Positions 5,897 through 29,735 of a DNA stretch of 64,000 nucleotides are shown piece by piece. The stretch comes from an uncultured Alphaproteobacteria bacterium (lineage in GTDB: Bacteria; Pseudomonadota; Alphaproteobacteria; CAAGCB01; CAG-977). The position numbers and the translations under genes are program-made. The stretch spans positions 162,410 through 226,409 of the forward strand of contig CAKQWA010000002.1 of NCBI GenBank assembly GCA_934277945.1, written 5' to 3'. Position 1 is the stretch's first letter. Each line of letters begins with the position of its first letter. The notes under the pieces were generated by a model, which made no database searches, was not told where the DNA came from, and saw only the letters and a list, made by a program, of their open reading frames with translations.

Positions 5897-6123
5897 ACCG
5901 AATCTCCTTAAAAAACTGTTTTCAATTTTTGTAAAAAAAACGCACTAAACTAACGTTTGTGTGTTTCATGCCCTTCGGATAACAATATCTAGTAAGGACA
6001 AAACGTCAAGAAAAAATGTGCGTTAAAAATTTTTTCTTTATAACCTACTGTAAACGAAAGTGAATTTTATACTGCACGCCTGTATAAATACCCTGCTCCG
6101 CCGACACGCGCCCGAACGCCGCG
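5897..6123 (-). promoter_or_regulatory. AT-rich nrdD upstream region with an imperfect inverted repeat (CACtAAACtaacGTTTgtGTG) as a candidate operator
   Basis: A 227-bp AT-rich non-coding region lies 5' of nrdD. An inverted repeat at about 5942..5963 sits some 45-65 bp upstream of the start. Promoter hexamers were not confidently assigned. Confidence 0.3.
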
Positions 6124-7134: not shown

Positions 7135-7146
7135 CGCGCTTCCTTT

Positions 7147-8130
7147 CTAGCAAAAACGGCGCAGCGCCGCCATCAGCGCGTCCGTCGTGTCCCAAACCAT
7201 ATACGCGGGAATTTCGCGCACGCGGTCGCGGAAAGCGGCGGGAACGCGGACGTAATCTTTCGAGGTCGTCAGCAATACGGCGTCCAGACGGGAGGCTTCC
7301 TCGACCAAGCGGTACAAATCCGCGTCCGTATAGGCGTAATGATCCGGAAACGCTTTCGTCGCGACAAGATTCACGCCGTACTCTTTGAGCATATCAAAGA
7401 ATTTTTCCGGCAGACCGATGCCCGCGAACGCCAACGCCCGCGCCCCGTCCAAAGACGAAACGACGGCGGCGTCCTGCTCGACGTGCGTGGCGAAAAACGG
7501 CAATTCCGGAAAATCGCGTTCGATCCGTTCGCGCAAAGCCGTCCTGTCCCTGCCGACGATTAAAAAAGCGTCCGCGCGCGCCAAGCCGTCTTTCATCGGC
7601 TCGCGCAAAGGACCTGCGGGGAAAACGCATCCGTTGCCGCGCCCCAGCCGCCCGTCGAACACGACGACGGAAAAATCTTTGCGCAGATGCGGGTTTTGAA
7701 ATCCGTCGTCCATGATAATCAAATCCGCGCCCAACCGTTCGGCGTATTTCGCCCCGCGCTTGCGGTCGGAATCGACGATTGTCGGCGCGACGCGCGCCAA
7801 AAGCAAGGCTTCGTCGCCGACGTCCTTGGCGGTGTGCTTGTCCAAATCGACCAAAACGCCGGTCAGACCGCCGCCGTACCCTCTGGTCAGGAAGACGGGC
7901 TTTTTGCCGTTGATTTTGTAAAATTCGGCAAAAGAAACCGCCAGCGGCGTTTTGCCCACACCCCCCATCATCAAATTGCCGATGCAAATCACGGGGATTT
8001 TCGCTTCATACGGCTTGGCTTTTTGACGGCGCACCCTGCCCGCGAAAGCGTACAAAGCCGCCAGCGGCGACAATATCTTTGAAACGGCGCCGCGTTTTTT
8101 GTTCCAGAACGACGGAGATGAAAACGGCAT
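7147..8130 (-). CDS. lpxK: Tetraacyldisaccharide 4'-kinase
   Basis: 327 aa with the P-loop 'CIGNLMMGGVGKTP' typical of LpxK. Its start overlaps the waaA stop as TAATG, a 1-nt overlap. Confidence 0.8.
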   Translation of the reverse strand: MPFSSPSFWNKKRGAVSKILSPLAALYAFAGRVRRQKAKPYEAKIPVICIGNLMMGGVGKTPLAVSFAEFYKINGKKPVFLTRGYGGGLTGVLVDLDKHTAKDVGDEALLLARVAPTIVDSDRKRGAKYAERLGADLIIMDDGFQNPHLRKDFSVVVFDGRLGRGNGCVFPAGPLREPMKDGLARADAFLIVGRDRTALRERIERDFPELPFFATHVEQDAAVVSSLDGARALAFAGIGLPEKFFDMLKEYGVNLVATKAFPDHYAYTDADLYRLVEEASRLDAVLLTTSKDYVRVPAAFRDRVREIPAYMVWDTTDALMAALRRFC

Positions 8131-11195: not shown

Positions 11196-12062
11196 TCAGC
11201 CGTTCGGCAATTTCAATTCCTGACACATCTTGTCGACTTCCGCAAACGTCGGGCGGATGTCGTGCGGCAGGGCTTTGCGGGCGAATTCGACGGAAATCTG
11301 CGGCGCATAGCCTTGAATATGCCCCATCAGCCCCGCGCGAATGACTTTCAGATATTCCAGTTCGGGAACGGTCACGTTCGCCACCGCGTTCGACAAAGGC
11401 GCGATAAAGCCGTACGCCAGCAAAACGCCGAAAAACGTGCCGACCAACGCCGCCGCAATCAAATGCCCCAGCACTTCGGGCGGTTCGTTAATCGCGCCCA
11501 TCGTGTGAATGACGCCCAGCACCGCCGCGACGATGCCCAATCCGGGACAGCCGTCGGCGACGCGGTTCAGCGCGGCGCTCATTTCCATTTTTTCATGCTC
11601 GATCGTTTCGATTTCCATGTCGATCACGGCTTCGATTTCATGCGGTTCGGGCGATCCGAACGTCAGCAAACGCAAATGCCCGCACAAAAAATCCATTGCC
11701 TCCGCGTTTTTCATAATCGTCGGAAACTGCTTGAAAATTTCGCTGTTCGCGGGATTGTCGACGTGCTGTTCCAAAATCATGTTGCCGCGCGTTTTCGCGT
11801 ATTTGAAGAAAACGAACAGCATGGCGAGCGTTTCGGTGAAACTCTTTTTGTTGTATTTCGGCGGCATAAAGATTTTCGGCAGCGTTTTCAGCGTGGCGAA
11901 CACCGTCGCGGGCGGAGTCGCAATCAGAAAAGCGCCGAATGCCGCGCCGCCGATGATTAAAAATTCGCTGGGCTGAAACAGGGTGCCAAAGTGACCGCCG
12001 CCCCACGCGAAACCGCCGGCGACGCTTCCGATGACAACCAACAAGCCGATTAAAGGGAACAT
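11196..12062 (-). CDS. motA: Flagellar motor stator protein MotA
   Basis: Strong MotA similarity, e.g. 'GIVAAVLGVIHTMGAI' and 'YAPQISVEFARKALP', with 4 TM segments. The start was set at 'MFPLIGLLVV', which is preceded by GGAGAaatcgaaATG. The track ORF extends 8 codons further upstream. Confidence 0.8.
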   Translation of the reverse strand: MFPLIGLLVVIGSVAGGFAWGGGHFGTLFQPSEFLIIGGAAFGAFLIATPPATVFATLKTLPKIFMPPKYNKKSFTETLAMLFVFFKYAKTRGNMILEQHVDNPANSEIFKQFPTIMKNAEAMDFLCGHLRLLTFGSPEPHEIEAVIDMEIETIEHEKMEMSAALNRVADGCPGLGIVAAVLGVIHTMGAINEPPEVLGHLIAAALVGTFFGVLLAYGFIAPLSNAVANVTVPELEYLKVIRAGLMGHIQGYAPQISVEFARKALPHDIRPTFAEVDKMCQELKLPNG

Positions 12063-12194
12063 TTCGATTTCTCCGAACAGACACAATTCTATACACTTAT
12101 ATATCTATCATCTTTTTATTAAAGATAAAAACCTTTTTATTTTTTTTCGGAACGGGGTAAAAATAGAGCATCCAACATACGAAAGGACGAAAAA

Positions 12195-13649
12195 ATGCCG
12201 CCGTTTGATTTTGTCGATTCCGTTTTTTTCAACAACACGCCGCTGGACAAGGACAAAGCTCTGCTTTTGTTAAGGCGGGCGGCGGGCAAGTGCGACGACG
12301 CGGATTTGTATTTACAGCAAAAAACGTCCGAGCATTTCGTTTTCGACGACGGCAGGATTAAAAGCGCGGGGGCGGACTTCACGCGCGGCTTCGGACTGCG
12401 CGTCGTGCAGGGCGACACGTTCGCGTACGCCCATTCGACCGACATCGGCGAAGACGCTTTAAAGCGCGCGGTGCAAAACGTCCTGCCCGTTCACGCGGAA
12501 GCGTCCTGCGGGGAAATTTCACCCGATACGCCGGAACGCGAAACCTCGCTTTACGCGCCGCAGGATTCCGCCGCATTGTACGCCGGCGCGCAAAAGACGG
12601 CTTTTCTGGCGCAGGTCGACGCTTACGTCCGCGCGCAAGATCCGCGCACCGTGCAGGCGACGATATCCCTGTCGTTTTCTTTCGATACGGTGAAAATCAT
12701 GCGTCCCGACGGATTTGAAGCGCAGGACGCCCGCCCGCTTGCGCATTTCAGCGTGCGCGTCGTGCTGGAAGAAAACGGACGGCGCGAAACCGGCTCGTGC
12801 GGATTCGGCGGCAGATACGGCTATGACCGGATATTCGACGAAGCGGCGAACGGAGGCGCGTGGAAAAAAGCGGCGGACGCGGCTTTGGCGCAGGCGCGGG
12901 TCAATCTGTCCGCCGTCAACGCGCCCGTCGGGGAGATGCCCGTCGTTTTGGGCAACGGCTGGTGCGGCGTTCTGCTGCACGAAGCGGTCGGTCACGGCTT
13001 GGAAGGCGATTTCATCCGCAAAAAGACGTCCGTTTTCACGGACAAAATCGGCGAACGGGTGTGCGCCAAAGGCGTGACGATTATTGACGACGGTTCCGTT
13101 CCCGAACGGCGCGGCTCTTTGAACATCGACGACGAAGGCACGCCGACCCGCCGCAACGTTCTGGTGGAGAACGGCGTTTTGAAAGGCTATATGCACGACC
13201 GCATGAACGCCCGCCTGACGCGCGCCTTGCCGACGGGAAACGCGCGCAGGGAATCGTTCGCCGCACCGCCGCAGGTGCGCATGACCAACACGTTCATGCA
13301 AAGCGGCGAGTGCGATTTTGAAGATATGCTGAAAGGCGTCGACAGCGGCATTTACGCCGCGTCGTTTTCGGGCGGGCAAGTCGACATCGTGTCCGGCGAT
13401 TTCGTGTTCTGCACGTCGGAAGCCTATAAAATCGAAAACGGCAAAATCACGACGCCCGTTAAAAACGCCATGCTGATCGGCAACGGACTGGGCGTCATGA
13501 ACGCCATTGACCGCATCGGCAACGATTCGTGTCTGGACGACGGCATCGGGTCGTGCGGCAAAGGCGGACAAAGCGTTCCCGTCGGCGTCGGTCAGCCGTG
13601 CGTGCGCCTGTCGAAAATCACGGTCGGCGGCGCGGCTGACAAGCCTTAA
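12195..13649 (+). CDS. tldD: Metalloprotease TldD
   Basis: 484 aa with 'HEAVGHGLEGDF' and the overall TldD/PmbA family pattern. A good RBS, AAAGGAcgaaaaaATG, precedes the start. Confidence 0.85.
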   Translation: MPPFDFVDSVFFNNTPLDKDKALLLLRRAAGKCDDADLYLQQKTSEHFVFDDGRIKSAGADFTRGFGLRVVQGDTFAYAHSTDIGEDALKRAVQNVLPVHAEASCGEISPDTPERETSLYAPQDSAALYAGAQKTAFLAQVDAYVRAQDPRTVQATISLSFSFDTVKIMRPDGFEAQDARPLAHFSVRVVLEENGRRETGSCGFGGRYGYDRIFDEAANGGAWKKAADAALAQARVNLSAVNAPVGEMPVVLGNGWCGVLLHEAVGHGLEGDFIRKKTSVFTDKIGERVCAKGVTIIDDGSVPERRGSLNIDDEGTPTRRNVLVENGVLKGYMHDRMNARLTRALPTGNARRESFAAPPQVRMTNTFMQSGECDFEDMLKGVDSGIYAASFSGGQVDIVSGDFVFCTSEAYKIENGKITTPVKNAMLIGNGLGVMNAIDRIGNDSCLDDGIGSCGKGGQSVPVGVGQPCVRLSKITVGGAADKP

Positions 13650-14773
13650 TAACGGGCGCGCGCTTTAAATTTGCGGAAAGTCTGCACGCGCGGACGCGAC
13701 GGCTCCGACTGCTGTTCCGTCGCGGGACGGGCGGCGGGCGCATCTTCGACGGATTCGCTTTGAGCAGGCTGTTCCGGCGCGGCGTTTTGCTCCGGTTGAG
13801 ATTCCGGCGCGGTTCCGGCAGACTCGGCGGCTTCCGTTTGCGGTGCGGACGCATCGTCAGCCGGCTGTTCCGGCGCGGTTTCGGCGGATTCGCTTTGAGC
13901 CGGCGGCTCGTTTTCAAACAGCGGTTCTTCGCCCTCGTTTTGCGCAATCCATTCTTCAATCGCGGCGTTCAGACGCTTCTGCTTTTCCACGGGGTCTTTC
14001 ATCAGACGGTTGAAATTTTCAACGAATTTCGGTCTTAAATGGCGGCATTGCGACATTTTCGACCATGCGGCGAACAGTTTGATGGAACGCAACGGCGTTT
14101 GCGAAATGTGCAAACGGTCGTACACTTTGAAGCGTCTGGCTTCCGCCACCGCCGCATAAGGCGACGAAATCATGAAATCCGCCTGACCGGTCAGCAACCG
14201 CTTGAACGCTTCGCGAGGACCGTCCACCCAATCGACTTTGGTGTCCGTCGGCAAAGCGGGCTGAATCAGCTGGCGGATGCCTTCTTCGTTGCGCACGACG
14301 CCGCGCAGACCGCTCAACGCGTCGAACGAAGACACGTCCAGCGGCTTTTCCTGCAAGGAAACGACCACGAACGGATTGCCGAAATAAGCGGGGAAAATGT
14401 AATCGACGTTGGACTTCTTTTCGTCTTCATAGTAAGCGGTGAAAAAAACGTCCGCCTTGCCGTGTTTGATTTCGCGCTTTAATTTTTCATAATCGTCCTG
14501 AAAATAATCTTGAAAAACGATATCCGCCTCTTTCAAGGAATCCTTGACGGTGTCGTACACAAAGCCGCGATATTCGTAGCGGTTCAGGTATTCTTCGTCC
14601 CCCTTGAACGTCATGACTTTCCACGAAAACGGCGGATAGTTCGTATATCCAGCCGTCACGACCGGCATATCTTTCGTGCCGCAGATGTTTAAGATCTCCT
14701 TTTGACTTTGCGCAAAAGCGGCGGATGAAAAAAGCGTTTGCGCGGCAAACAGCGTCATAAGAAATTTTTTCAT
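13646..14773 (-). CDS. Secreted periplasmic substrate-binding-like protein with a Pro/Glu/Gln/Ala-rich low-complexity C-terminal tail
   Basis: Signal peptide 'MKKFLMTLFAAQTLFSSAAFAQ'. The central domain resembles family-3 solute-binding proteins. The C-terminal ~110 aa is PEQPA/ESA-rich. Confidence 0.4.
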   Translation of the reverse strand: MKKFLMTLFAAQTLFSSAAFAQSQKEILNICGTKDMPVVTAGYTNYPPFSWKVMTFKGDEEYLNRYEYRGFVYDTVKDSLKEADIVFQDYFQDDYEKLKREIKHGKADVFFTAYYEDEKKSNVDYIFPAYFGNPFVVVSLQEKPLDVSSFDALSGLRGVVRNEEGIRQLIQPALPTDTKVDWVDGPREAFKRLLTGQADFMISSPYAAVAEARRFKVYDRLHISQTPLRSIKLFAAWSKMSQCRHLRPKFVENFNRLMKDPVEKQKRLNAAIEEWIAQNEGEEPLFENEPPAQSESAETAPEQPADDASAPQTEAAESAGTAPESQPEQNAAPEQPAQSESVEDAPAARPATEQQSEPSRPRVQTFRKFKARARY

Positions 14774-15195
14774 TGCTCGGCTCCCTGTTCAAATCCGTCG
14801 ACAAGCATATCGTCCAAAACGTCCTGCACCTTGAACGCCCAATTCAAAGCAGTCTCCATTTTACCCGAAAAATGCGCCAAACGCACCCTGATTGCGTCCG
14901 CGCGGGCGAAATTGTACGCGACTTCCATGCCGACGCAGAAATCGGGCGTTTCAAAAACGCCTTGAAACAAGCCGTCGGGAAGAATGTACAAACGCGCGGA
15001 TTCGTCGTCGTCCGGCGAAAAATCGTAAATCATTTCCGGCTGTTCGCGTTTTTCCCCGACGCTCGCCGCATCGCACGCGCCGCGCTGTTTTCCCGCCTCC
15101 ACCAAAGAGCAAGCCAGAGTCGCGAATTTATAAATCAGCGTGTCCGCGTCCGTCTGTTCACCAAGGGTTTCGCCCGTTTCTGTCATTTCGTTCAT
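14770..15195 (-). CDS. Hypothetical acidic protein
   Basis: 141-aa ORF whose stop overlaps the downstream start as ATGA. It has coding-like periodicity but no recognised motif. Confidence 0.4.
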   Translation of the reverse strand: MNEMTETGETLGEQTDADTLIYKFATLACSLVEAGKQRGACDAASVGEKREQPEMIYDFSPDDDESARLYILPDGLFQGVFETPDFCVGMEVAYNFARADAIRVRLAHFSGKMETALNWAFKVQDVLDDMLVDGFEQGAEQ

Positions 15196-15280
15196 TTTTT
15201 CAACTCATCTTTAACAAATTCGTTTTTTAATATACCATAGATATAGCATTTGGAACTTTTTTTACAGGAGTTTTTACGTC

Positions 15281-15685
15281 ATGACCCTCAATCCGTACGC
15301 CGCCGCCGATGTTTCCGCCAAGCCGCAAAATGAAATGGAAGCGCGCGCCTTGGTGCGAACCGCCTCTCGTTTAAACGCCCTGAAAGAAAACTGGCCCCCC
15401 AAAAAAGAGGATTTGAACACGGCGCTGGAACTCAACCGGAAACTCTGGGCGTTCTTTTTAAGCGAAGTGTGCGACGAAAGAAACCCCCTGCCGCACGACA
15501 TCAAGCAAAACATCTTCAATCTGGCGCATTTCATTTTCAAACACACGTTCAACATTCAGGCGAAGCCCTCCGCCTCGTCGCTGGACGTGCTGATCAACAT
15601 CAACATGAACATCGCGCGCGGTTTGAACGAACAATCGAAATTCAAAGCGGAACAGGCGGCGAAATCCGGCGGCGCGACCGCGTAA
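15281..15685 (+). CDS. flaF: Flagellar biosynthesis regulator FlaF-like protein
   Basis: 134 aa. The pattern 'NPYA...NRKLWAFFLSEV...NPLPHDIKQNIFNLAHFIFKHT...INMNIARGL' matches the alphaproteobacterial FlaF family. Confidence 0.5.
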   Translation: MTLNPYAAADVSAKPQNEMEARALVRTASRLNALKENWPPKKEDLNTALELNRKLWAFFLSEVCDERNPLPHDIKQNIFNLAHFIFKHTFNIQAKPSASSLDVLININMNIARGLNEQSKFKAEQAAKSGGATA

Positions 15686-15878
15686 GGCGGTCTTTAACGC
15701 CCTGAAACGCAAACGCGCCCCTGAAAGCGCGGACGATTCCCGAAATAAAGCGCTCGCTCAAAACGCAAGCGCGCCCGACAAAATACGGCAAGCCTTAAAC
15801 ACACAGCCGCGCCCCGCAAAAAGCGCCGGCGCACCCTCTCCGAAATGCAAAAAAGCGGCTTTTTCGCCGCTTTTTTTA

Positions 15879-16856
15879 TTATGTCACTTCCGTCACCGCG
15901 CGGATGTTGCCCTGACGGTTGATTTGCACCACGCGCAACTTGTCGTGCATTTCGGCAATCGTCTTTTCGCGGTCGATTGTCGGATAGCAGTGCAGAATAC
16001 GGTCGGTGAACGCCTTGTAAGCGGCTTCGGAGTTTTCGGCGTGGATGGTCGCAAAGCAGTTGTCGTGCCCCGACCCCATCAGTTCCCACAGCGCGCCCGC
16101 GTTCGCCGTTGAAATTTCGCCGCCGATAATCGCGTCGGGAGTGAAACGCACGACCAAGTCGATCAGTTTCGGGTAAGTCATCGTGTTCGTCTGTTCGGTA
16201 CGCGACAGCACCAGATGAACGTGATTGGGATGCGGAACCATCAATTCGCGCGTATCTTCAATGGTGATGACGCGTTTGTGAATGTCCAGAATGGTTAAAA
16301 GGTTGTTCAAAAAAGTCGTTTTACCGGTCGCCGTCGCACCGGAAACCAAGATGTGATCGCCGCGCTTGATTGACAAAATCAGACGTTCGTACGGGTCTTC
16401 GGGGTTTTCCACTTCTTTCAAACGGTTCAGTTTCTGCAAGCGTTCGCCGGCTTTCAATCCGTAATCCCCCAGTCCGAATTTCAATTCTTCGGAGTGGACG
16501 CGGACGCACATGGCGATGCCGCCCGTCAAGTCTTCGTTGTCGTACATGACGTTTTTGCCGGCGATGCCTGTGAAACGGTGATCCCCCGGCAAAGTCGCGT
16601 ACACGGCGGGCGAGCCTTGTTCGGGGTCAAACGGCAGTTCAAACGTGTTGGCGATGATGTGCATGATGTCCGTCAGATAGGTGCGCGACAGGTTTTTGTC
16701 CGCCTGCGCCGCCCATGGATGCGCGCGCCGTCCGCGCAAACGCAGCCAGATTTCGTTCGGGCGGTTGATGGAAATTTCTTCCACATTGTCCTGTTCGTAC
16801 CAATAGGACAAATACCGCAATGTCGACTTTAAAACCTTAAAAGCATCCGTAGACAT
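15879..16856 (-). CDS. virB11: Type IV secretion system ATPase VirB11
   Basis: 325 aa with Walker A 'GATATGKTT', 'RFTPDAIIGGEIS' matching the VirB11 'RPDRIIVGEIRG' box, and the His-box 'CFATIHAENSEAA'. It is the last gene after the virB10 homolog. Confidence 0.8.
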   Translation of the reverse strand: MSTDAFKVLKSTLRYLSYWYEQDNVEEISINRPNEIWLRLRGRRAHPWAAQADKNLSRTYLTDIMHIIANTFELPFDPEQGSPAVYATLPGDHRFTGIAGKNVMYDNEDLTGGIAMCVRVHSEELKFGLGDYGLKAGERLQKLNRLKEVENPEDPYERLILSIKRGDHILVSGATATGKTTFLNNLLTILDIHKRVITIEDTRELMVPHPNHVHLVLSRTEQTNTMTYPKLIDLVVRFTPDAIIGGEISTANAGALWELMGSGHDNCFATIHAENSEAAYKAFTDRILHCYPTIDREKTIAEMHDKLRVVQINRQGNIRAVTEVT

Positions 16857-16875
16857 TTCAACCTCGCTTTACGCA

Positions 16876-19800
16876 TTAAAACAGTTCGGGAATCCCCTCG
16901 TCCTCCGCCGCCGCGGGCGCTTTCGCCGCCGCCTGAGCCGCCGCTTTCGCCGCCGCGTTCTTTGCGTTCGTCTGCTGCGGCGTTTTCGGCGTTTCAAGCG
17001 TCGTTTGCGGCGCTTGCTGTTGCTGGTTCGGCATATTCGGATTGTAGCCGTAATACGCGTTCGCCGGCATTTGCGACGGGGACTGCTCGACTTCGGCGCC
17101 GCTTGTCAGTTTCTGGGAGGAAGCGTCGATTTCACGCTGTTTCTGCTCTCTCAATTCCTGTTCGCGCTTGTCGATCAGTTTTGTCGTCTTTTCGCTCTGA
17201 TAATTCATGTCGTCTTCTTCGTCTTCCGTTTCCGTGCGCAACCACAAATCCTGATTGGCAAAAACGGTGATGCGCGTTCCCGACGGCACGAAAGAGCCGG
17301 ACGAAATCTGTTGCAGTTCGGAGAAGATCGCGTCGAAAATCTCCTGCATTTTGTCGGAGAAGTTGGAACGCGCGTCGTCCAAAGCCTGCTGTTTGCCGGT
17401 CGTCGTCGTCGTCGTACTGCCACCGGAAGCCGTTTCGACGGTCGTGCCGCCGTCCGCCATCATCCACAAAGCCGCGGATTCGACGACCGTTTCCAAAAGC
17501 GGCAGACCGAAGCGTTTCAGCAACTGCAAGTCCAAATAAGCGGGGATGCCGCCGCGTCCCTGCGCGTCGCCCGAAGATCCTTCCGGTTCGAACACGAATC
17601 CGACGCCGTCCGGACGAATCAAACGCGTCCACACGATAGCGATTTTCGACGCCGCCATCGGTCCCGCGCCGCTCTTGCCATCGCCGCCGGAGCCGATTTT
17701 CCCGATCAGGCGGCTGCCCGCCGGAATCAGAATGTTTCTGCCCGTTTCGGAATAAACGTTTCTTTCAACCACGGCGGAAACCGGCACGTTCGTATAGCGC
17801 GAATCAATGGAGCGCACCAAAACGGCGGGAATCGCCTTGTCCGCCAGAATCATGCGGCTCATGTCGACACGGTAGGAGGACGCGGTTTTCTTGATGCCCT
17901 GATCGCTCCAATCCTTGCTGACTTTCTGTTTGCGCCGGCGCTGTTTCTCGATATCGCTCTGCGACGCGCTTTGCAGTTGCCCCATGCTCATGGATTTGCG
18001 GCGCGCTTCCTGCATCGCCTGCAACTGCGCGATTCTTTGCGCGGAATAGCGTTCGCTGCGCCCCTGTCCGTAGCCTTTGATGCCGTACGCACCGCCGGAT
18101 TTGATGCCTTTACCGGCGGGAATTTCCGCCCCGCCCGTTCTTTTGGCTTCGCGCTCGGCATCGATTTTCGCCTGTTCCTCCGGCGACGTCTGCGTGCCGA
18201 TGATATTGCCGTCCGCGTCAATGATGTCGCCGTTTTCGTTGACGTAGCCGATGATGTTGCCGTTTTCGTCGACAACCGTGCCGTCGTCCAGAATGATGCC
18301 GAGTTTTTTACCCGTTTTAGAATAGGCGTATTTCGGTTTCGCCGCGTCGTTCGCGGGCGTAAAAACGCCGTCGTCCCAAGAACCGATGACGTTGCCGTTG
18401 ATGTCGACAATCTGACCGTCGGCGTTAATTCTGCCGATTTCCACGCCGTTCAGATTGACGACGCGGCCGTCGGGCAAAATCAGTCCGATGATGTTGCCGT
18501 CGGCGTCGCGCAACGGTTCGCCCTCCATGACCGACCCGATGACGTTGCCGTTCATGTCGACGACCGTGCCGTCGGGCAAAACTCTGCCGATGATGTTCCC
18601 TTCGTTGTCGCGCACATAGCCGTCCGCGCCGACAATGCCCAAGAACTCGCCGTTTCTGCCGATTGCCATTTTCACGGTTTCGTTGCCGGAAACGGCGGAC
18701 ACCTGACCGATGACGTTGCCGTCCAAATCGACGACCGTGCCGTCTTCCAGCACGCGCCCGATGATGTTGCCGTTCTCATCGCGCACAAAGCCGTCTTCGC
18801 CGACCGTGCCGATGACTTTGCCGTCGGGTCCCAAAACCTGCCTGCCGACAAATTTTTCGCTTGCGCCGACCTGCCCCAGAATGTTGCCGTCCATATCGAC
18901 GACCGTGCCGTCGTCCAGCACTCTGCCGATGACGTTTCCGTTCGCGTCGCGCACCAGACCGTCCGCGCCGACCGTGCCCAAAAGCGTGCCGTCAGGACCG
19001 TACACCTTGCGTCCCTCGAACGTCGCCTGAACTTTGCCGATGGGATTGCCGTTCATATCAACGACCGTTCCGTCCGGCAGAACTCTGCCGATGACATTCC
19101 CGTTCGCGTCGCGCACCAAGCCGTCCGCGCCGACCGTGCCCAAAAGTTTGCCGTCGGGTCCGTACACCTTGCGTCCCTCGAACGACGGCGCGACCTTGCC
19201 GATCGTTTTGCCGTTCATGTCGACGACCGTGCCGTCGGGCAGAACCCTGCCGATGACGTTCCCGTTCGCGTCGCGCACCAAACCGTCCGCGCCGACCGTG
19301 CCCAAAAGTTTGCCGTCGGGTCCGAACACCTGTCTGCCCGCGTAAGAGGGCGCCGCCTTGCCGATGACGTTGCCGTTCAAATCGACGACCGTGCCGTCGG
19401 GCAAAACTCTGCCGATGACGTTGCCGTTCGCGTCGCGCACCAAGCCGTCTTCGCCGATCGTGCCCAGCACTTCGCCGTTCGGTCCCAGAACCTGCTGATT
19501 GGCGAACAGGGAAGCCGGCACGCCGTCTTTCGTGTTCATCATGGAAATCCAGCACAAGTCCGTTCCGTCCTCTTTCACCGCCTTGCCGTTCGCCAGCAGT
19601 TTGCCCAGCACTTCGGAAGCCGTGTTGACGATTGAACCGTCATAATGCACCTTACCGACGGCGACGCCTTTCATTTTACATTCTTCGCCGATAGGCACGA
19701 CGCGCCCCAAGAATTTCTTGTCCGGCGTCAGCGTGCGCATTTCGGACGTGACGTAGCCCAAATCCTTGCCTTTGACGTTAACCACGCGTCCGTAGGGAGT

Positions 19801-22800
19801 CACCGTGCCGACCACGTCGCCCTTTTTGGAAATGACCAGTCTGCCGAAAGGCACTTCCACACCGATTTCCTGTCCGCTTTTGTAAACGGCTTTGCTTTGC
19901 TCGTTGACGACGCCCAGCGCGAAGCCCGTCACGGGATGCACGACGTAGCGGTTGCCGAACACGCGCCCGAGAACACGCCCGTGTCTGTCAACCAGATAAC
20001 GCCACCCCGCCGCCGCGCCGATGATGTTCTTTTCGGCGTCCAGCACCATGCCGTCCTGCGTGAAGCATCCGAGCGGATTGCCCTGATAGTCGATCACTTC
20101 GCCGTCGCCGACCGTGCGTCCGAACGACGAGCCGTCAAACGTGACGACCACGCCTTTCTGCACCAGTCTGCCGAGATTTTTGCCGCGTTTGTCGCGCACG
20201 ACGCCGTCGAAATCGACGCATCCGATTTCATCCATGCGCCCGTTCAGCACGCGCCCCTCGGCGTTCAGATTGCCGACGACCTCGCATTGAGAGCCGACCA
20301 CCGCGCGCGGTGAAACGACCAGACCGATCAAAGAGCCGTCGTTGTCGATCACGCCGCGGTCGTACGTCATGCGGGCGATGTTTTTGCCGTTTTTGAACAC
20401 TTCGCCCGTATCCATGCTCAACACGCCCGCGTCCATGTTGCAGGACGGCGCCAGAACGTACGGATCCATCACGCCGTAGCCGATGACGGCGTTCATTTTG
20501 TCCGTGACCGTTTCGTCGGGCAGGAACTTGCCGACCGTGCCGCGCTGTTGATGCACGACGTCGCCGCGCATGGAAATGCGTCCCAAAAAGTCGTTGGACG
20601 GCGTTAAAGCCAAGCCCGAAGACGATTTGAAGCCGACGACCTGACGTTCCGCGTCCGTCTGCATTTTGCCGATAATTTTGCCGTTGAAGTCGGCGACCGT
20701 GCCGTCCGTCCAGACGCGCCCGATGATTTTGCCTTTGAAATCGCGCACCAGAGCGTCGCGTCCGACAACGCCGAGCGGCTTGCCGTCGAAATCGACCGCC
20801 TGTCTGTTGATGTACTGCGCGGGCGGGTCGATTTGCCCGATGATTTTATCCTTGTCGTCCTCAACCGTGCCGTTGGGCAGAACTTCGCCCAAAACGGCGT
20901 TTTGACGGTCGACGACGTTGTTGTCGTTGTCAACGCGCCCGATGATGTTGCCCGTTTCGTCGTAAGCGCGCAGGGAAACGCGCCCGATGACGCGCCCGTT
21001 CAAATCAAGCACCGTGCCGTCGCGAATGACGCGCCCGATGATTTTGCCGGAGGAATCGCGCACCAGACCGTCGGCAAACACGACACCCAGCACCGTATCG
21101 CCCTGTTGCGAATACACGTCGTGATCCACGAAATTCGCGGGGGCTTCCAACTGCCCGAACACCTTGTTCGCGGAATCGTTGACCAAGCCGTCGGAATCCG
21201 CCGTGCCGACGATTTTGCCATCGTCGGAAACGACTTTGCTGTTTTCGTCCGTCTTGCCGATGAACGTGCCGAAAGAATCGTACGCTTTCGTTCCCACGGC
21301 GGGTTTGACGGAAAGCACTTTTTTGCCCTGCGCGTACTGCCCGATGACTTTTCCGGAAGCGTCCAGCACTTCGCCGGTCGCGGACACATAGCCGATGATG
21401 TTGCCGTTCGCGTCCATAATCGGTTCGCCGACGGCGACGATTTCGCCGATTTCGCGTCCCTCTTTGTCGAAAACGCGGTTGGACATATCGGCGTAACCGA
21501 TGATGTTGCCGTTCAAATCGACGACCGTGCCGTCCGGCAGAGCCGTCCCGATGACTTCGCCGTTTTTGCCGATGACCTGACGCACGCCCATGAACACGCG
21601 CCCGACCGTCGCGCCGTTTTTATCGACGACGCGTCCGTCCGGCAACTGCAAATTGCCCAGAAATTCGGATTTCTTGTCCAGAGCGATCCCCTCCGGCAGA
21701 ATACGCCCGATAATCGCCATGGAAGCGTCGAAAACAGGCACGCCCGCGGGAATGACGCCCGCGATTTTAACGTGTTCCGCGTCTTCAATGTAGCCGGTGC
21801 TGACGACGCGTCCCAAACGCTTGTCGCCGCCCAAAGTCAACGCTTCGCCGCGTTCGTTGCCGCGCCCGAACAGAACGCTGTCCTGATTAAGAGCCAAACC
21901 GGTGGAAAGAGGCGTCCCCAAAAACGCGGGCTTGCGCCCCAGCATACTGATCAGACCGTCCGCGCGCAGACAGCCGACGGGCTTGCCCTCCTCGTCGATC
22001 AGTTCGCCCTTGTAGTTCGTATAGCCCAGATACTCGTTCCGGTTGCCCAAAACGCTGCCGCCCTTGACAACACGTCCGATAAACTTGTCCTTATCGTTGA
22101 AAACGGCGTTATTATCCTGAATGTAGCCCAAACGCTCCATGCGCGAATTGACGATGCGCCCGTCGGGAATGATTCTGCCCAGCGGCAGACACGGCATCTG
22201 CATCGCGTAAGCGTCGCGCGGCACGACGCGCCCGACTTTCGAGCCCGAAGCGTCAACGACGACACCGTCGGAGAACACGCGCCCCAAAACCGCGCCTTTG
22301 ATATCCGTCGCCATCGCGTCGGGAGCGACAAAACCGACGGAACGCCCTTTGGCGTTGATGACGCTGTAATTCGGCAACAGTCCGCCCAGCACGACGTTTG
22401 TGGAATCAATGGCGAGGCGCGACGGATCCATACAGCCGATGACCATGCCTTTCTTATTGACGACCTTGCCGCTTTCGTTGGCGAAGCCTTCCACTTCCCC
22501 CGATGAACCGACGACAATCGGCGTATACGGTATCGCGCCGGTCACCATGCCGTCTGCCCCGAAAACATCTCCCGAAGAACTCAACGAACCTTCCACCTGA
22601 CTTGTCGAAACGGAAACGATCTTGCCTTCCGAGTCAAGATACCCCAAGACTTCACAGCCGGCTCTGACGGCAACGGGAACATCGTCGTTCACCCAAGCGC
22701 CCGTCACCTGCCCCGTCGACGACAGAAAAGCACCGTCGGGCTGAATGCGCCCTTTCAGTTCTCCGCCCGAAACAACCGCGCCGTCCGGCATAATCCGTCC

Positions 22801-24411
22801 GATAAACGCGCCCCGCCGTCCGACGACAACCCCTTTGGGACGGACGCTGGCGATAATTTCCATATCAGAGTTTAAAACGGTGGATTGCGGGGTCAGGCAC
22901 CCCAGCGGATCGCCTTTGTGATTGATCGGCGTGCCGTCCGTGTCAATGCGCCCGATGATGTTGCCGTCCCAGTCCAGCAGCGGACCTTCCTGCACCAAAG
23001 AGCCGACCGGATTGCCGTTCAAATCCAGAATGACGCGCGTGGAGGTCATGTGACCGACAAGTTTGTTGTCTTTCAGCACGGAGCCGTCCGTGCTGACGCG
23101 CCCGAGAACGCGGCATCCGGATCCGACGGCGATACCGGTTTGCACCGTGCGGCTGATGATGTTTTTATTGCTGTCAATAATCAGACCGCCGGGCAGAGCC
23201 TTGCCGATGACCGTGCCGTCTTCGTTGACGACGCGGCCGTCCGGCAGAACGACGCCGAGCGAACGCCCCATGCCGTCCACGACGCCCCCTTGCGGCACCA
23301 GCGTGCCGAGAGGCTTGCCTTCCAAATCGACAACCGTGCCGTCGGGGTTCAAATAGCCTATCAGATTTCCCGTTTCATCGACGACGCGGCCGTCCGGCAG
23401 AACTTTGCCGATGACGTTGCCCTTTTTGTCGTACACGTTGCCCGCCGCAATCGCCGAGCCGATGACGTTGCCGTTCAAATCCACGATCGTGCCGTCGCGC
23501 AACGCCCTGCCGATGACGTTGCCGTGCGAATCAACGACGCGCCCGTCGGGCAGAACCGTGCCGATGACTTCGCCGTTCGGTCCCAAGGCGATTTTCTGCC
23601 CCTCGACGACGCCGATGATGTAACCGTCCGCGTCCACAACGGTGTTGTCGGGCTGAACCATGCCGATTTTCTTGCCGTCCAGACCGATGGCGACGCCGTT
23701 TTCGTCGGCGTACCCGATCGGTTTGCCGTCCAGACCGAGAATCAAGCGTCCCTTGTCCTGCAAATTTTCAATCATCGTGCGTTTTTCGCCCGACGGACTT
23801 TCCACGTTGTCGCAAACGCCGCACATACTTGTGTCGATTGCGGTCGCGGAAACGGGAATGACGACTTTTTTACCGATGATGCCGAAAGTTTCGTCGCGCC
23901 AGCGCACCGCCAGATTGTTTTGAATGGAGCGCGCCTGCTTGGGCTCCCAGCGCACGACGACGTTGCAAACCGCGTCGCCGGTCAAGATTTCGTTCGCCTT
24001 GCACTTGTTTTCCAGCGTAAAGCCGTCTTTCTGGACTTCTTCAAAATCGACGGAAATGATGCTGACCTTGCCCGACGAACTGGACAGCGAAACGGTCGCT
24101 TCCGCCTCGGTGTTCAGCACGACCTGATCGAAACGGATCGCTTCGGGGGTCGCCACGACGCGCACCGTCGTTTTTTCAGGCATGTTGATTTGCAACTGGT
24201 CGACGCCGGTTCCCGTCACGCCGGACGACGCGTCAACACCGTCGCCGACGGTTAGCTTTGCGTCCTCCTTGACCGTTTCGACGCCGCCCATCAGAATAAC
24301 CAACCCGATCAGAAACGCGAACAACGCTCCCAATCCGACGAACAGAATCGTCCGGTTTGTCTTTTTCAAATATGTTTCAGACGAGCTGAGATATTCTTCT
24401 TCGTCAGACAT
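16876..24411 (-). CDS. virB10: Giant VirB10/TrbI-family T4SS protein (2511 aa) with a huge internal tandem-repeat array; CagY/DotG-like architecture
   Basis: Short cytoplasmic N-terminus plus one TM ('ILFVGLGALFAFLIGLVILMGG'). The C-terminal region 'VPVSAVVERNVYSETGRNILIPAGSRLIGKIG...IAIVWTRLIRPDGVGFVFEPEGSSGDAQGRGGIPAYLDLQLLKRFG' matches the VirB10/TrbI barrel domain. About aa 225-2075 consists of ~17-aa 'LPDGTVVDLNGNVIGKV'-type repeats. A Q/A/K-rich tail follows. Confidence 0.8.
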   Translation of the reverse strand: MSDEEEYLSSSETYLKKTNRTILFVGLGALFAFLIGLVILMGGVETVKEDAKLTVGDGVDASSGVTGTGVDQLQINMPEKTTVRVVATPEAIRFDQVVLNTEAEATVSLSSSSGKVSIISVDFEEVQKDGFTLENKCKANEILTGDAVCNVVVRWEPKQARSIQNNLAVRWRDETFGIIGKKVVIPVSATAIDTSMCGVCDNVESPSGEKRTMIENLQDKGRLILGLDGKPIGYADENGVAIGLDGKKIGMVQPDNTVVDADGYIIGVVEGQKIALGPNGEVIGTVLPDGRVVDSHGNVIGRALRDGTIVDLNGNVIGSAIAAGNVYDKKGNVIGKVLPDGRVVDETGNLIGYLNPDGTVVDLEGKPLGTLVPQGGVVDGMGRSLGVVLPDGRVVNEDGTVIGKALPGGLIIDSNKNIISRTVQTGIAVGSGCRVLGRVSTDGSVLKDNKLVGHMTSTRVILDLNGNPVGSLVQEGPLLDWDGNIIGRIDTDGTPINHKGDPLGCLTPQSTVLNSDMEIIASVRPKGVVVGRRGAFIGRIMPDGAVVSGGELKGRIQPDGAFLSSTGQVTGAWVNDDVPVAVRAGCEVLGYLDSEGKIVSVSTSQVEGSLSSSGDVFGADGMVTGAIPYTPIVVGSSGEVEGFANESGKVVNKKGMVIGCMDPSRLAIDSTNVVLGGLLPNYSVINAKGRSVGFVAPDAMATDIKGAVLGRVFSDGVVVDASGSKVGRVVPRDAYAMQMPCLPLGRIIPDGRIVNSRMERLGYIQDNNAVFNDKDKFIGRVVKGGSVLGNRNEYLGYTNYKGELIDEEGKPVGCLRADGLISMLGRKPAFLGTPLSTGLALNQDSVLFGRGNERGEALTLGGDKRLGRVVSTGYIEDAEHVKIAGVIPAGVPVFDASMAIIGRILPEGIALDKKSEFLGNLQLPDGRVVDKNGATVGRVFMGVRQVIGKNGEVIGTALPDGTVVDLNGNIIGYADMSNRVFDKEGREIGEIVAVGEPIMDANGNIIGYVSATGEVLDASGKVIGQYAQGKKVLSVKPAVGTKAYDSFGTFIGKTDENSKVVSDDGKIVGTADSDGLVNDSANKVFGQLEAPANFVDHDVYSQQGDTVLGVVFADGLVRDSSGKIIGRVIRDGTVLDLNGRVIGRVSLRAYDETGNIIGRVDNDNNVVDRQNAVLGEVLPNGTVEDDKDKIIGQIDPPAQYINRQAVDFDGKPLGVVGRDALVRDFKGKIIGRVWTDGTVADFNGKIIGKMQTDAERQVVGFKSSSGLALTPSNDFLGRISMRGDVVHQQRGTVGKFLPDETVTDKMNAVIGYGVMDPYVLAPSCNMDAGVLSMDTGEVFKNGKNIARMTYDRGVIDNDGSLIGLVVSPRAVVGSQCEVVGNLNAEGRVLNGRMDEIGCVDFDGVVRDKRGKNLGRLVQKGVVVTFDGSSFGRTVGDGEVIDYQGNPLGCFTQDGMVLDAEKNIIGAAAGWRYLVDRHGRVLGRVFGNRYVVHPVTGFALGVVNEQSKAVYKSGQEIGVEVPFGRLVISKKGDVVGTVTPYGRVVNVKGKDLGYVTSEMRTLTPDKKFLGRVVPIGEECKMKGVAVGKVHYDGSIVNTASEVLGKLLANGKAVKEDGTDLCWISMMNTKDGVPASLFANQQVLGPNGEVLGTIGEDGLVRDANGNVIGRVLPDGTVVDLNGNVIGKAAPSYAGRQVFGPDGKLLGTVGADGLVRDANGNVIGRVLPDGTVVDMNGKTIGKVAPSFEGRKVYGPDGKLLGTVGADGLVRDANGNVIGRVLPDGTVVDMNGNPIGKVQATFEGRKVYGPDGTLLGTVGADGLVRDANGNVIGRVLDDGTVVDMDGNILGQVGASEKFVGRQVLGPDGKVIGTVGEDGFVRDENGNIIGRVLEDGTVVDLDGNVIGQVSAVSGNETVKMAIGRNGEFLGIVGADGYVRDNEGNIIGRVLPDGTVVDMNGNVIGSVMEGEPLRDADGNIIGLILPDGRVVNLNGVEIGRINADGQIVDINGNVIGSWDDGVFTPANDAAKPKYAYSKTGKKLGIILDDGTVVDENGNIIGYVNENGDIIDADGNIIGTQTSPEEQAKIDAEREAKRTGGAEIPAGKGIKSGGAYGIKGYGQGRSERYSAQRIAQLQAMQEARRKSMSMGQLQSASQSDIEKQRRRKQKVSKDWSDQGIKKTASSYRVDMSRMILADKAIPAVLVRSIDSRYTNVPVSAVVERNVYSETGRNILIPAGSRLIGKIGSGGDGKSGAGPMAASKIAIVWTRLIRPDGVGFVFEPEGSSGDAQGRGGIPAYLDLQLLKRFGLPLLETVVESAALWMMADGGTTVETASGGSTTTTTTGKQQALDDARSNFSDKMQEIFDAIFSELQQISSGSFVPSGTRITVFANQDLWLRTETEDEEDDMNYQSEKTTKLIDKREQELREQKQREIDASSQKLTSGAEVEQSPSQMPANAYYGYNPNMPNQQQQAPQTTLETPKTPQQTNAKNAAAKAAAQAAAKAPAAAEDEGIPELF
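18190..23740 (-). repeat. Coding tandem-repeat array inside virB10
   Basis: The array is roughly 17-aa DGxVVDxxGNVIG units, on the order of 100 copies. They are grouped into 54-aa super-repeats. A sub-region near 18.75-19.5 kb holds near-identical 162-bp DNA copies. Confidence 0.7.
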
Positions 24412-27680: not shown

Positions 27681-28388
27681 TTACGCGCCGGAAACGAACT
27701 TTTCCAAAGAGACCGCAAGCGCGGCGAACGCTTCGCCGTCAATGCAGTGCCCCATGCCGTTCACGGCGTGGAACGAAACGTCGCATCCGGCGGATTTCAG
27801 GAAACTCCGCGTCAGTTCGCAGGCGGGATACGGCACGACGGGGTCGGCGGTGCCGTGAATCAGCGCGACGGGCGGGGTCGAGCGCACGCTTTCCCTGTCG
27901 AACAGCGGGGGACAAAACACCGGACAGCAGGCGGACATACCGATAATGCCCGCCGCTTGCTCTTTTGCAAGCAATCCGGTCAATATGGCAAGCAAACCGC
28001 CCTGCGAAAAGCCCGCCAGCACGATTTTCGACATCGGCAGGGAACACGCTTTTGCGATTTGAGCGACGTAATCCGCCGTCAGTTCCGCCGCCTTCAACGC
28101 GTCGGGCATCAGTTCAAAAAAGATGTCGCGCGGATTGCGCCCCGCTTCGACGTCCTCGAAAAAATGCGGCAAATCGAACCACGCGCGCATATTGACGAAA
28201 GCGGGCGTGTTCGGCACGTCTTCGGGCGCGTCGGGAAAGAAAAAGGCGGTGTCGGGGACTGCGCGCGCCAAATACGGCGCCAATTCCGCCAAATCCGAAC
28301 CGTTCGAGCCGTATCCGTGAAAGAACACGGCGGCGGATGACGGATTTGCGGCGCCCTTGCGCACGGTTGTCAAAGAAAAAGCGGTCAT
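27681..28388 (-). CDS. Phospholipase/carboxylesterase-family alpha/beta hydrolase
   Basis: 235 aa with the nucleophile elbow 'GFSQGG' and His in a C-terminal 'GMGH' motif. It is co-oriented with virB8a and lies 40 bp upstream of it. Confidence 0.65.
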   Translation of the reverse strand: MTAFSLTTVRKGAANPSSAAVFFHGYGSNGSDLAELAPYLARAVPDTAFFFPDAPEDVPNTPAFVNMRAWFDLPHFFEDVEAGRNPRDIFFELMPDALKAAELTADYVAQIAKACSLPMSKIVLAGFSQGGLLAILTGLLAKEQAAGIIGMSACCPVFCPPLFDRESVRSTPPVALIHGTADPVVPYPACELTRSFLKSAGCDVSFHAVNGMGHCIDGEAFAALAVSLEKFVSGA

Positions 28389-28484
28389 AAAAATCCCCCT
28401 TGCGAACGAAAAAAGTTTACAAAACGGCGGTTTTGTTTTTTTATGGATTTAACGGATTTTATACTGAAAAAGGAGCGCGCTTCA

Positions 28485-29030
28485 ATGTTAATTGACAGAA
28501 ACGATTCAACTTTGCTGATTATCGACGTGCAAGAGCATCTGACGCCCGCGCTGAAAACGCCGCGCGATGTCATCACGGGGACGGAAAGACTGGCGAAAGG
28601 TGCGAAAATGCTGGGCGTTCCGGTCATTGCGACGGAGCAGTATCCCAAAGGGCTTGGTCCGACGATGTTCGACGTGCGTTCGGTTCTCGCGCCGGAAGAT
28701 TTCTTTGAAAAATGCGCGTTTTCGGTCTTGGCGCAGGACGGGTTCAAGGAACGTCTGGAAGCGCACGGCAAAAAGCAGGTGATTATCACGGGCGCGGAAA
28801 TGCACATCTGCGTTCTGCAAAGCGCGATCGCGTTAAAAGAAAGCGGCTATTTTCCGTTTGTGGTTGAAAACGCGTGTTCCAGCCGCTTCGACCGCGATTT
28901 TCTGGCGGCGAAAGACCGCCTGACGCAAGAGGGGATTCCGCTTGTAACGGTTGAAATGGTGCTGTTCGAGTGGTTGCGCACGTCAAAAGCGCCGGAATTC
29001 AAACAGGTGCAGTCGCAACTGGTTTATTAA
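28485..29030 (+). CDS. Isochorismatase-family cysteine hydrolase
   Basis: 'STLLIIDVQEHLTP' followed by a 'GAEMHICV' segment typical of the isochorismatase fold. The start was set at the internal 'MLIDRNDS'. Confidence 0.6.
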   Translation: MLIDRNDSTLLIIDVQEHLTPALKTPRDVITGTERLAKGAKMLGVPVIATEQYPKGLGPTMFDVRSVLAPEDFFEKCAFSVLAQDGFKERLEAHGKKQVIITGAEMHICVLQSAIALKESGYFPFVVENACSSRFDRDFLAAKDRLTQEGIPLVTVEMVLFEWLRTSKAPEFKQVQSQLVY

Positions 29031-29039
29031 GGGAAAGCG

Positions 29040-29735
29040 ATGTCGAAAAAGCAAGTCGTGCTGTTGCCCGCGCTGTTGTGCACGCCGGAAATTTTCATCA
29101 ATCAGATTCACGCGTTGCAGCCGCACGCGGACTTTCACACGCCGGACACGACGAAGCGCGCGGATATTGCGTCTTTGGCGAAAGACATTCTGGACGGCGC
29201 GCCGGAACGGTTCGCTCTGGCGGGGATTTCAATGGGCGGCTACGTCGCGTTCGAGATTCTGCGTCAAGCGCCGGAACGCGTGACGGATTTGATATTGATG
29301 GACACGTCCGCCCTGCCCGACGCGCCGGAAAAGCGCGCGAAACGGGCGCAGATTGTGGAATTGGCGAAAGCGCGGGGCATTGAAAGCGTCGTGCCCGCCG
29401 TTTTGCAAAGCCTGCTCGCCCCGCAGTATCGCGACTTGTCGCAGTTGGGGCGTTTCATGACGTTCATGGCGCAGACAATCGGCGTTCAGGGGTTCGCCAA
29501 TCAGCAAAGCGTCATCGCCTCGCGTCCTGATTCGACGGATTTGCTGGGACAAATCGACATTCCGACAACGGTGGTCGGCGGCGCGTGCGACGAAGTGACA
29601 CCGATTGACAAAATGCGCGAACTGGCGGCGCAAATTCCGCACGCGCGCTTTGTATCCGTCGCGGACAGCGGGCATCTGCCGCCTTTGGAAAATCCGGCGG
29701 CGGTCACCCGCATCTTCCAAGACGCGTTACTTTGA
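29040..29735 (+). CDS. Alpha/beta-fold hydrolase
   Basis: 231 aa with 'GISMGGYVA' (GxSxG) and Asp/His residues in the C-terminal half. It starts 9 bp after the isochorismatase gene. Confidence 0.65.
   Translation: MSKKQVVLLPALLCTPEIFINQIHALQPHADFHTPDTTKRADIASLAKDILDGAPERFALAGISMGGYVAFEILRQAPERVTDLILMDTSALPDAPEKRAKRAQIVELAKARGIESVVPAVLQSLLAPQYRDLSQLGRFMTFMAQTIGVQGFANQQSVIASRPDSTDLLGQIDIPTTVVGGACDEVTPIDKMRELAAQIPHARFVSVADSGHLPPLENPAAVTRIFQDALL

Follow-up and report, generated by a model that had tools for sequence, protein, structure and literature searches.

We analysed a window of 64,000 nucleotides (nt) of contig CAKQWA010000002.1, from an uncultured gut alphaproteobacterium, which carries on its reverse strand a tightly packed operon of type IV secretion system (T4SS) homologues in the order virB8b, virB7-like lipoprotein, virB8a, virB9, virB10, virB11 (Table 1). 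The subject of this work is the virB10 homologue, which opens with an ATG placed 13 nt downstream of an AAGGA motif and runs for 2,511 codons with zero internal stops; its start lies 4 nt beyond the virB9 stop, and 19 nt separate its end from virB11. An earlier note on this DNA had described a protein that keeps the N-terminal cytoplasmic segment, the single transmembrane (TM) helix and the C-terminal TrbI/VirB10 domain of its family, with a repeat array in place of the usual proline-rich periplasmic linker and a Q/A/K-rich low-complexity tail after the barrel. Each of these elements was recovered here.

Table 1. Features of the islet and of the giant virB10 homologue, in window coordinates (aa, amino acids; ORF, open reading frame; pLDDT, predicted local distance difference test score; dN/dS, ratio of nonsynonymous to synonymous substitution rates; TRF, Tandem Repeats Finder).
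Feature	Residues or length	Positions	Strand	Basis
virB8 paralogue b	234 aa	26936..27640	-	Pfam VirB8, E 9e-14
virB7-like lipoprotein	59 aa	26692..26871	-	lipobox LGAC and KKSP-C motif (...LGAC...LKKSPCAC...)
virB8 paralogue a	238 aa	25954..26670	-	Pfam VirB8, E 1e-19
virB9/CagX homologue with C-terminal SPOR	512 aa	24416..25954	-	Pfam CagX, E 9e-13; SPOR aa 435-510
virB10 homologue, whole	2,511 aa, ~264 kDa	16876..24411	-	intact ORF; same or near-same ORFs in independent assemblies
N-terminal cytoplasmic tail, motif ..SSSE.Y.KK.NR	aa 1-20	24352..24411	-	conserved in 31 homologues; precedes sole TM helix
Single TM helix	about aa 21-43	24283..24351	-	hydropathy peak aa 19-48; AlphaFold2 helix aa 10-42, pLDDT ~90
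ASH/PapD-like (Ig-like) beta-sandwich, then CxxC	aa 85-192	23836..24159	-	four conserved Cys altogether
Beta-flower beta-hairpin array, 109 unit positions, 75 clear	aa 218-2073	18193..23760	-	Pfam, position matrix, AlphaFold2, dN/dS
Six 54-aa (three-hairpin, 162-bp) super-repeats	aa 1635-1960	18532..19509	-	TRF, unit list, assembly breaks
Charged, partly helical linker, segment GERY..R.A.L.A.Q..RR	aa 2074-2187	17851..18192	-	AlphaFold2 helices, low-pLDDT gaps; conserved alignment columns
VirB10/TrbI beta-barrel domain	aa 2188-2391	17239..17850	-	Pfam PF03743
Antenna: two helices flanking a Thr/Gly-rich loop (aa 2319-2338)	aa 2296-2318 and 2339-2368	17308..17526	-	AlphaFold2, low-pLDDT loop
Low-complexity tail, acidic then Q/P/A/K-rich, ends IPELF	aa 2392-2511	16879..17238	-	sequence
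virB11 homologue	325 aa	15879..16856	-	Pfam T2SSE; TIGR02788 positions 1-306 of 308, E 4e-42

Architecture and integrity of the virB10 homologue

The C-terminal part of the protein contains a nearly complete TrbI domain (PF03743 profile positions 2–188 of 188 on aa 2188–2391; E = 8e-31; score 107.8 bits, cut-off 35). When the C-terminal 474 aa were compared with solved structures by phmmer, the best match was to ComB10 (2bhv; E = 8e-14), with a further match to CagY (8cb2; E = 5e-8), and the same query also found X. citri VirB10 (6gyb), TrwE (7o3j) and TraF (3jqo). Foldseek matches of the TrbI domain include DotG (9ngw and 7muq). An AlphaFold2 model of aa 1853–2420, built from a 45-sequence alignment (mean pLDDT 73.7), comprises hairpins, the partly helical linker and a barrel bearing an antenna, the helices of which are residues 444–466 and 487–516 of the model; the equivalent helices in TraF (3jqo) form the outer-membrane channel. 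The NCBIfam models for VirB10 and ComB10 match the protein, which falls short of their equivalog cut-offs (92.2 versus 220 bits for NF038091 and 90.7 versus 300 bits for NF038092). Domain, fold, topology and genomic context place it in the VirB10/TrbI family, as a divergent member. Its low-complexity tail ends in a motif, [VI]P[AEQ]LF, that is kept in most of 82 related loci and may serve as a docking peptide.

The N-terminal part matches the bitopic topology of VirB10, with a short cytoplasmic N-terminus and one inner-membrane TM helix. The segment at aa 19–48 is the sole strong hydrophobic stretch in the entire protein, and an AlphaFold2 model of aa 1–440 (mean pLDDT 77.6) places a helix at aa 10–42, disorder at aa 44–80 and a beta-sandwich at aa 85–192, followed by at least 12 hairpins at pLDDT 84–94. 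The ASH/PapD-like domain formed by the beta-sandwich, between the TM helix and the repeats, had been overlooked in the earlier note.

We then considered whether the gene is correctly assembled. Contigs of the same species were found as those encoding an identical VirB9, and five of these are full-length. One encodes a protein identical to that of the window, two encode 2,511 aa with 17 and 16 substitutions, respectively, and a fourth encodes 2,507 aa. The fifth (L084, positions 11544–18755) encodes 2,403 aa and lacks exactly aa 1702–1809, equivalent to two of the 54-aa super-repeats. Five further same-species contigs (Logan) stop at aa 1664–1708, at the start of the super-repeat zone. The nearest orthologous contigs, L001 and L002 (93% and 82–84% nt identity), are collinear across the entire gene; frameshifts, pseudogenisation and programmed frameshifting were considered for them and rejected, the apparent split being a 100-N scaffold gap in the super-repeat zone. 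The earlier note had allowed for an assembly chimera or for frameshifts. The ORF is uninterrupted and recurs across independent assemblies and related species, and its contiguous frame is reproduced in four independent gap-free assemblies of 2,507–2,511 aa. Because independent assemblies are full-length, the frame and overall size are solid, and the giant virB10 gene is real and conserved rather than an artefact. The sole uncertain point is the super-repeat count (6 or 4), which reflects either strain variation or short-read assembly collapse. Purifying selection on the repeat array is strong: relative to L001, dN/dS is 0.08 for the repeats at aa 218–1634 and 0.03 for those at aa 1635–1827, with values of 0.19 both for the N-terminus and for the C-terminus (barrel region).

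An array of beta-flower hairpins

To define the repeats, a position matrix for 17-aa units was built from the protein itself and a shuffled sequence was used as control. The matrix detected 75 non-overlapping units within aa 218–2073 (shuffles: mean 0.2, maximum 2), with a consensus of V-L-P-D-G-T-V-V-D-x-N-G-N-V/I-I-G-x and a spacing between GxxhG anchors of exactly 17 in 40 of 74 cases. The array is 1,856 aa long and provides space for 109 units, roughly one third of which are degenerate. The unit of about 17 residues, its consensus and the order of 100 copies given in the earlier note therefore all agree with this analysis. The 54-aa super-repeats, into which that note had the array organised, are real and present in six copies, yet they are a local feature rather than a property of the array as a whole: TRF reports a 162-bp period in this zone (3.6 copies, 86% matches), and only within aa 1635–1960 does the autocorrelation peak at 54 and 108. 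Between the membrane anchor and the barrel, where other VirB10 proteins have a proline-rich linker, there is instead the ASH domain and 1,856 aa of hairpins with a proline content of 3.8%. Differences in repeat number, which the note had proposed to look for in orthologues, were found both between same-species assemblies (four super-repeats in one versus six, through strain variation or assembly collapse) and across related loci (27–90 detectable units).

The repeat belongs to the Pfam beta-flower/DUF3659 families, an assignment made on sequence profiles and motifs. The strongest match is Bflower_2 (PF21785; E = 6e-135; 441.9 bits, cut-off 38), which tiles the array in 21 stretches, and there are further matches to Bflower (PF21784; 145.2 bits) and DUF3659 (PF12396; 149.9 bits). 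In the AlphaFold models from which alone it is known, the beta-flower has 8, 10 or 12 short antiparallel strands arranged as a shallow barrel with 4-, 5- or 6-fold symmetry, and its hairpin 'petals' bear a semi-conserved [DNEQ]xxG motif at their tips (Durairaj et al. 2023, PMC10584680). This motif occurs 116 times in aa 218–2073. Secondary structure assignment by DSSP on the AlphaFold2 models gave alternating strands of 3–5 residues in a strand-turn-strand pattern at pLDDT 84–94, including 13 such hairpins at pLDDT 84–90 in the model of aa 1853–2420. It is the combination of Pfam match, tip motifs and expected strand pattern that identifies the repeat as a catalogued family. The 21 Pfam stretches suggest that the 109 hairpins may be grouped as about 21 discrete flowers.

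No analogue of the repeat hairpins was found among solved structures in the PDB by structure comparison, including Foldseek. A Rhs-like cocoon is not supported, as neither the weak matches to RHS/YD-repeat profiles nor a Foldseek match to Rhs (E = 0.7) reach significance. There is likewise no similarity to the CagY repeats, since CagY chains match only in the TrbI domain (positions 148–277 of the C-terminal 474-aa query), nor to a repeat of the DotG type, the unit being 17 aa long and the protein devoid of Pentapeptide Pfam matches. The proposal that the repeat is neither the DotG pentapeptide nor CagY-like was thus borne out, as was the suggestion of a beta-hairpin unit. The further idea of an independently evolved repeat needs qualification: the array is unrelated to those of CagY and DotG, but it is built from an already catalogued family and is not a new invention. 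Beta-flower arrays also occur inside CpaB, between the SAF and RcpC domains (P0151, P0153–P0166), and in an OmpA-like protein.

Gene neighbourhood, distribution and known relatives

The order of the operon is conserved in about 70 species or loci, with virB9 and virB11 flanking virB10 in 76–82 loci and the virB7-like lipoprotein conserved in 70 of 82. Across the clade VirB11 shows 70–96% identity, far above that of VirB8, VirB9 and VirB10; NCBI records label it 'Flp pilus assembly ATPase TadA' despite its end-to-end alignment with the VirB11 profile TIGR02788. VirB9 carries an unusual fusion, in which a peptidoglycan-binding SPOR domain (aa 435–510) follows a long Gly/Thr-rich linker, and this suggests that VirB9 may tie the core complex to the peptidoglycan or cell wall. 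The window contains a single gene with a CagX domain. Around the operon lie housekeeping genes (nrdD, lpxK, kdtA, motAB, rpoBC and tuf), and flaF follows virB11 on the opposite strand. A link to the flagellar genes nearby (flaF and motAB) was rejected because that synteny is limited to close relatives.

Directly 5' of virB8b and on the same strand is a gene for an alpha/beta hydrolase of the phospholipase/carboxylesterase type (27681–28388, reverse strand), which is syntenic in the closest relatives, and beyond it are genes for an isochorismatase and a second hydrolase on the strand opposite to the islet (28443–29735, forward strand). A 2,141-aa ORF 7 kb from the islet (31616–38041, reverse strand) has a prepilin-like N-terminus (..ERG/ALMLEAIALLGLM.., with Glu at +5 after a Gly at -1); it gives zero Pfam or NCBIfam matches. 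It is kept at 2,133–2,136 aa in same-species contigs and may be a giant pilin-like adhesin.

Relatives were scanned with one genome per species. At least 556 were found. The best 80 are all metagenome-assembled genomes (MAGs) of uncultured gut or rumen Alphaproteobacteria, under labels such as 'Azospirillum sp.', 'Proteobacteria bacterium CAG:495' and Ca. Scatocola, with the addition of two mis-binned contigs; the latter (L005 and L052) are filed as 'Limosilactobacillus gorillae' and 'Lactobacillaceae bacterium' and are probably binning contamination. In the related loci, from about 70 species-level MAGs, the TrbI-bearing ORFs are 1,273–2,683 aa long with 27–90 detectable units. An exhaustive HMMER search of 1.84 billion representative proteins gave 95 with E <= 1e-30. 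Among those reaching E <= 1e-46, most of the full-length ones measure 1,000–2,406 aa, and the weaker tier then begins with VirB10 proteins of 500–690 aa. Homologue lengths from the protein collection (all <=830 aa) were disregarded as a measure of size, since very long products seem to be absent there. Although contig annotation includes the 2,511-aa protein, it has no Pfam record and is not retrieved by exact look-up, and the family appears in that collection only as fragments of <=830 aa; in public MAG annotation such proteins are named 'TrbI/VirB10 family protein'. We conclude that gigantism is a conserved, clade-wide trait and not an oddity of one genome.

In 51 species, the giant VirB10 is encoded by two adjacent genes (for example at 3872–7240 and 7244–11959 of L011, and in L013, L021 and L050). 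The upstream gene (1,037–1,574 aa) contributes the cytoplasmic tail, TM helix, ASH domain and hairpins, while the downstream gene (1,409–1,886 aa) encodes a signal peptide (AxA/QEITAIDFNG), further hairpins and the TrbI barrel. In 51 of 53 split forms, the upstream gene product has an N-terminus homologous to residues 1–217 of the window protein (E ~1e-28). We rejected an in-frame stop or readthrough as the origin of the two-gene form, given that the frame is common to just 14 of 55 pairs and that the downstream gene encodes a signal peptide of its own. The two frames being unrelated, the pairs are genuine separate genes. Split pairs total 2,549–3,131 aa and unsplit forms 2,032–2,683 aa, such that the total array length is roughly constant across the clade.

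Compared with canonical VirB10, TraF, TrwE and ComB10 proteins (~380–480 aa), the window protein has the same domain order, antenna-bearing barrel and adjacent virB9 and virB11 genes, but it replaces the linker with ASH and hairpins and extends the C-terminus by a 120-aa tail that closes with a conserved PELF. Two repeat-bearing homologues offer closer parallels in size. CagY, the VirB10 homologue of the Helicobacter pylori Cag T4SS, is ~1,900 aa, smaller than the 2,511 aa of the window protein and the clade maximum of 2,683 aa. Its repeats recombine to modulate function (PMC6761968), whereas the 17-aa beta-hairpins described here evolve under purifying selection, in an operon that is rvh-like and not cag-like. 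DotG (IcmE) of Legionella and Coxiella, which ranges from 1,000 to >1,500 aa, shares the TrbI C-terminal domain and a repeat-rich middle, the length of which varies in DotG, but its repeat is a ~10-aa [KR]xAG[FY]..x[LI] or pentapeptide-like unit (bioRxiv 10.1101/2023.03.22.533729) and it belongs to a type IVB system of ~27 components, with no Dot/Icm genes present in the window region. The repeat regions of both DotG and CagY have been proposed to form a periplasmic collar, which is absent in conjugative systems that lack repeats (bioRxiv 10.1101/2023.03.22.533729).

In gene order, the islet matches islet C of the Rickettsia rvh system, virB8-virB7-virB8-virB9-virB10-virB11-virD4 (Gillespie et al. 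2009, PMC2653234). In both, VirB8 is present in two copies and the VirB7 lipoprotein bears the [KI]KSP-Cys motif that is common to RvhB7 and ComB7 (PMC2653234); both are also chromosomal, vertically inherited and alphaproteobacterial. Unlike islet C, the present locus lacks both a virD4 behind virB11 and the second (truncated) virB9. Gillespie et al. describe no repeat-expanded RvhB10 (PMC2653234), and the sole Rickettsiales-labelled relative found here (P0102, 725 aa) has no beta-flower Pfam match on record. With respect to the repeat, described beta-flower proteins are single small domains of 8–12 strands and ~96 aa, sometimes lipoproteins (PMC10584680), whereas ~218 strands are concatenated here within a secretion-system subunit. 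The same repeat family is inserted in CpaB/RcpC, the periplasmic connector of the Tad pilus, which differs in its machine and anchors and has fewer repeats (680–755 aa in total).

Possible roles of the array

We favour, with moderate confidence, the view that the protein serves as VirB10 in an rvh/ComB-like T4SS that is chromosomal and vertically inherited, and that its array forms a large ring, cage or collar in the periplasm. The array would lie in the periplasm, because it is situated between an inner-membrane TM helix and an outer-membrane barrel with no other TM segment. Canonical outer-membrane cores have ~14 protomers, a number seen in 3jqo and other solved complexes of VirB10. With this many copies, the array would add roughly 26,000 residues of folded hairpin modules, and the ~1,850 residues of each protomer would amount to roughly 21 five-hairpin modules if the Pfam tiling is right. 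Such a mass is far beyond what a stalk would need, and the array is therefore most likely to build a large ring, cage or collar around the channel, as has been suggested for the repeat regions of DotG and CagY, to which it is unrelated. The split forms, in which one half sits in the inner membrane and the other is a secreted outer-membrane part, suggest that the modules associate non-covalently, in which case the array would act as a scaffold or spacer and not as a covalent tether. The VirB9 SPOR domain may fix the structure to peptidoglycan. That beta-flower arrays are also found in CpaB/RcpC and in an OmpA-like protein suggests a general periplasmic spacer or scaffold module.

A number of observations weigh against this interpretation. 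All of the T4SS components of the islet score under the NCBIfam equivalog cut-offs. There is no VirB4, VirB6, VirB2/3/5 or VirD4 in the window or in the 10 kb beyond each end (~84 kb altogether), and none of these was found beside the cluster in the other loci sampled (Pfam, and a Walker-A scan of 340 large ORFs); a complete T4SS is assumed here by analogy with the scattered system of the Rickettsiales. The periplasmic placement is deduced from predicted topology, and CagY has been claimed to be surface-exposed despite the same topology (PMC6761968). One species (L020) has an unsplit form of only 1,273 aa. As for the fold, the beta-flower was described with no PDB relative and no known function (PMC10584680). 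Predicted template modelling scores of the AlphaFold2 models are low (0.36–0.43), and there is no 85-aa (five-unit) periodicity, autocorrelation being seen only at 17/34/51 and 54/108. The hairpins may close into barrels of four, five or six petals or may instead form an open sheet or solenoid.

The missing VirB4, VirB6 and VirD4 genes are also the starting point for a different explanation, namely that virB7–11 have been co-opted as a stand-alone envelope structure (a tether, a spacer or a ComB-like DNA uptake apparatus) which lacks the VirB4/VirB6 core and does not secrete. The best sequence match among solved structures is to ComB10, from H. pylori competence, the VirB7 motif is common to ComB7, and the SPOR domain and vertically inherited position amid housekeeping genes would suit such a structure. 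We nonetheless judge it unlikely. VirB11 is present and highly conserved (70–96%), whereas ComB systems to our knowledge lack it. Moreover, the T4SS genes of the Rickettsiales are scattered over five islets, with VirB4, VirB6 and others outside islet C, the one that has the same gene order (PMC2653234), and the absence of VirB4, VirB6 and VirD4 from any one locus is therefore expected.

Another possibility is that the array is threaded to the cell surface and serves as an adhesin or antigen, contacting a host or target or decorating a pilus. CagY has been reported to decorate the surface, and the same has been suggested for the variable regions of DotG (PMC6761968), and the gut habitat, the giant pilin-like ORF 7 kb away and the different numbers of super-repeats in same-species assemblies (6 versus 4) could all be accommodated. 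However, the default topology is periplasmic, with the array between the inner-membrane TM helix and the outer-membrane barrel, and in split forms the N-terminal half remains anchored in the inner membrane. The dN/dS values of the array (0.03–0.08) indicate purifying and not diversifying selection, and four of the five full-length assemblies agree at 2,507–2,511 aa, the copy difference lying at the site of assembly breaks where it may be a collapse. We therefore hold a surface role to be quite improbable. Finally, the 100-N gaps of L001 and L002, the five Logan contigs ending in the super-repeat zone and the one assembly shorter by 108 aa might hint at an assembly artefact or decaying pseudogene, an idea essentially refuted by four gap-free assemblies of 2,507–2,511 aa (one of them identical), by intact ORFs of 1,273–2,683 aa in ~70 species and by purifying selection along the whole array.

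Beyond the periplasmic ring, cage or collar that we favour, a bolder and rather doubtful proposal is that the virB7–11 islet represents a new architectural class of envelope-spanning machine, found only in one clade of gut Alphaproteobacteria at the rank of an order and possibly devoid of a VirB4/VirB6 core. It would be built around a megadalton periplasmic cage self-assembled from beta-flower modules, with 2,000–3,100 residues of hairpins for each VirB10 or VirB10 pair; the cage would be made from one polypeptide or from two complementary halves, with a size set by the conserved total repeat length.

In the literature searched there was no paper linking beta-flower or DUF3659 with VirB10, nor one that connects type IV secretion with 'RF32', a conjectural name for this clade. 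A beta-flower VirB10 thus appears to be undescribed there, while the VirB10 family and the repeat family were both already known. Repeat-expanded VirB10 proteins have so far come from two pathogen systems, CagY and DotG, in which the role of the repeats is debated and a collar is the current proposal. The protein described here adds a third case of such expansion, independent of the other two and larger (up to 2,683 aa). It is composed of a different module that is confidently predicted to be folded, and it is conserved under purifying selection in dozens of commensal gut species. The finding should be of clear interest to T4SS structural biology. Unsplit and split forms of similar total length amount to a natural experiment on whether VirB10 needs to be continuous from membrane to membrane. 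For the orphan beta-flower fold, the array would provide a first concrete cellular context, as a module of periplasmic connectors such as VirB10, CpaB and an OmpA-like protein.

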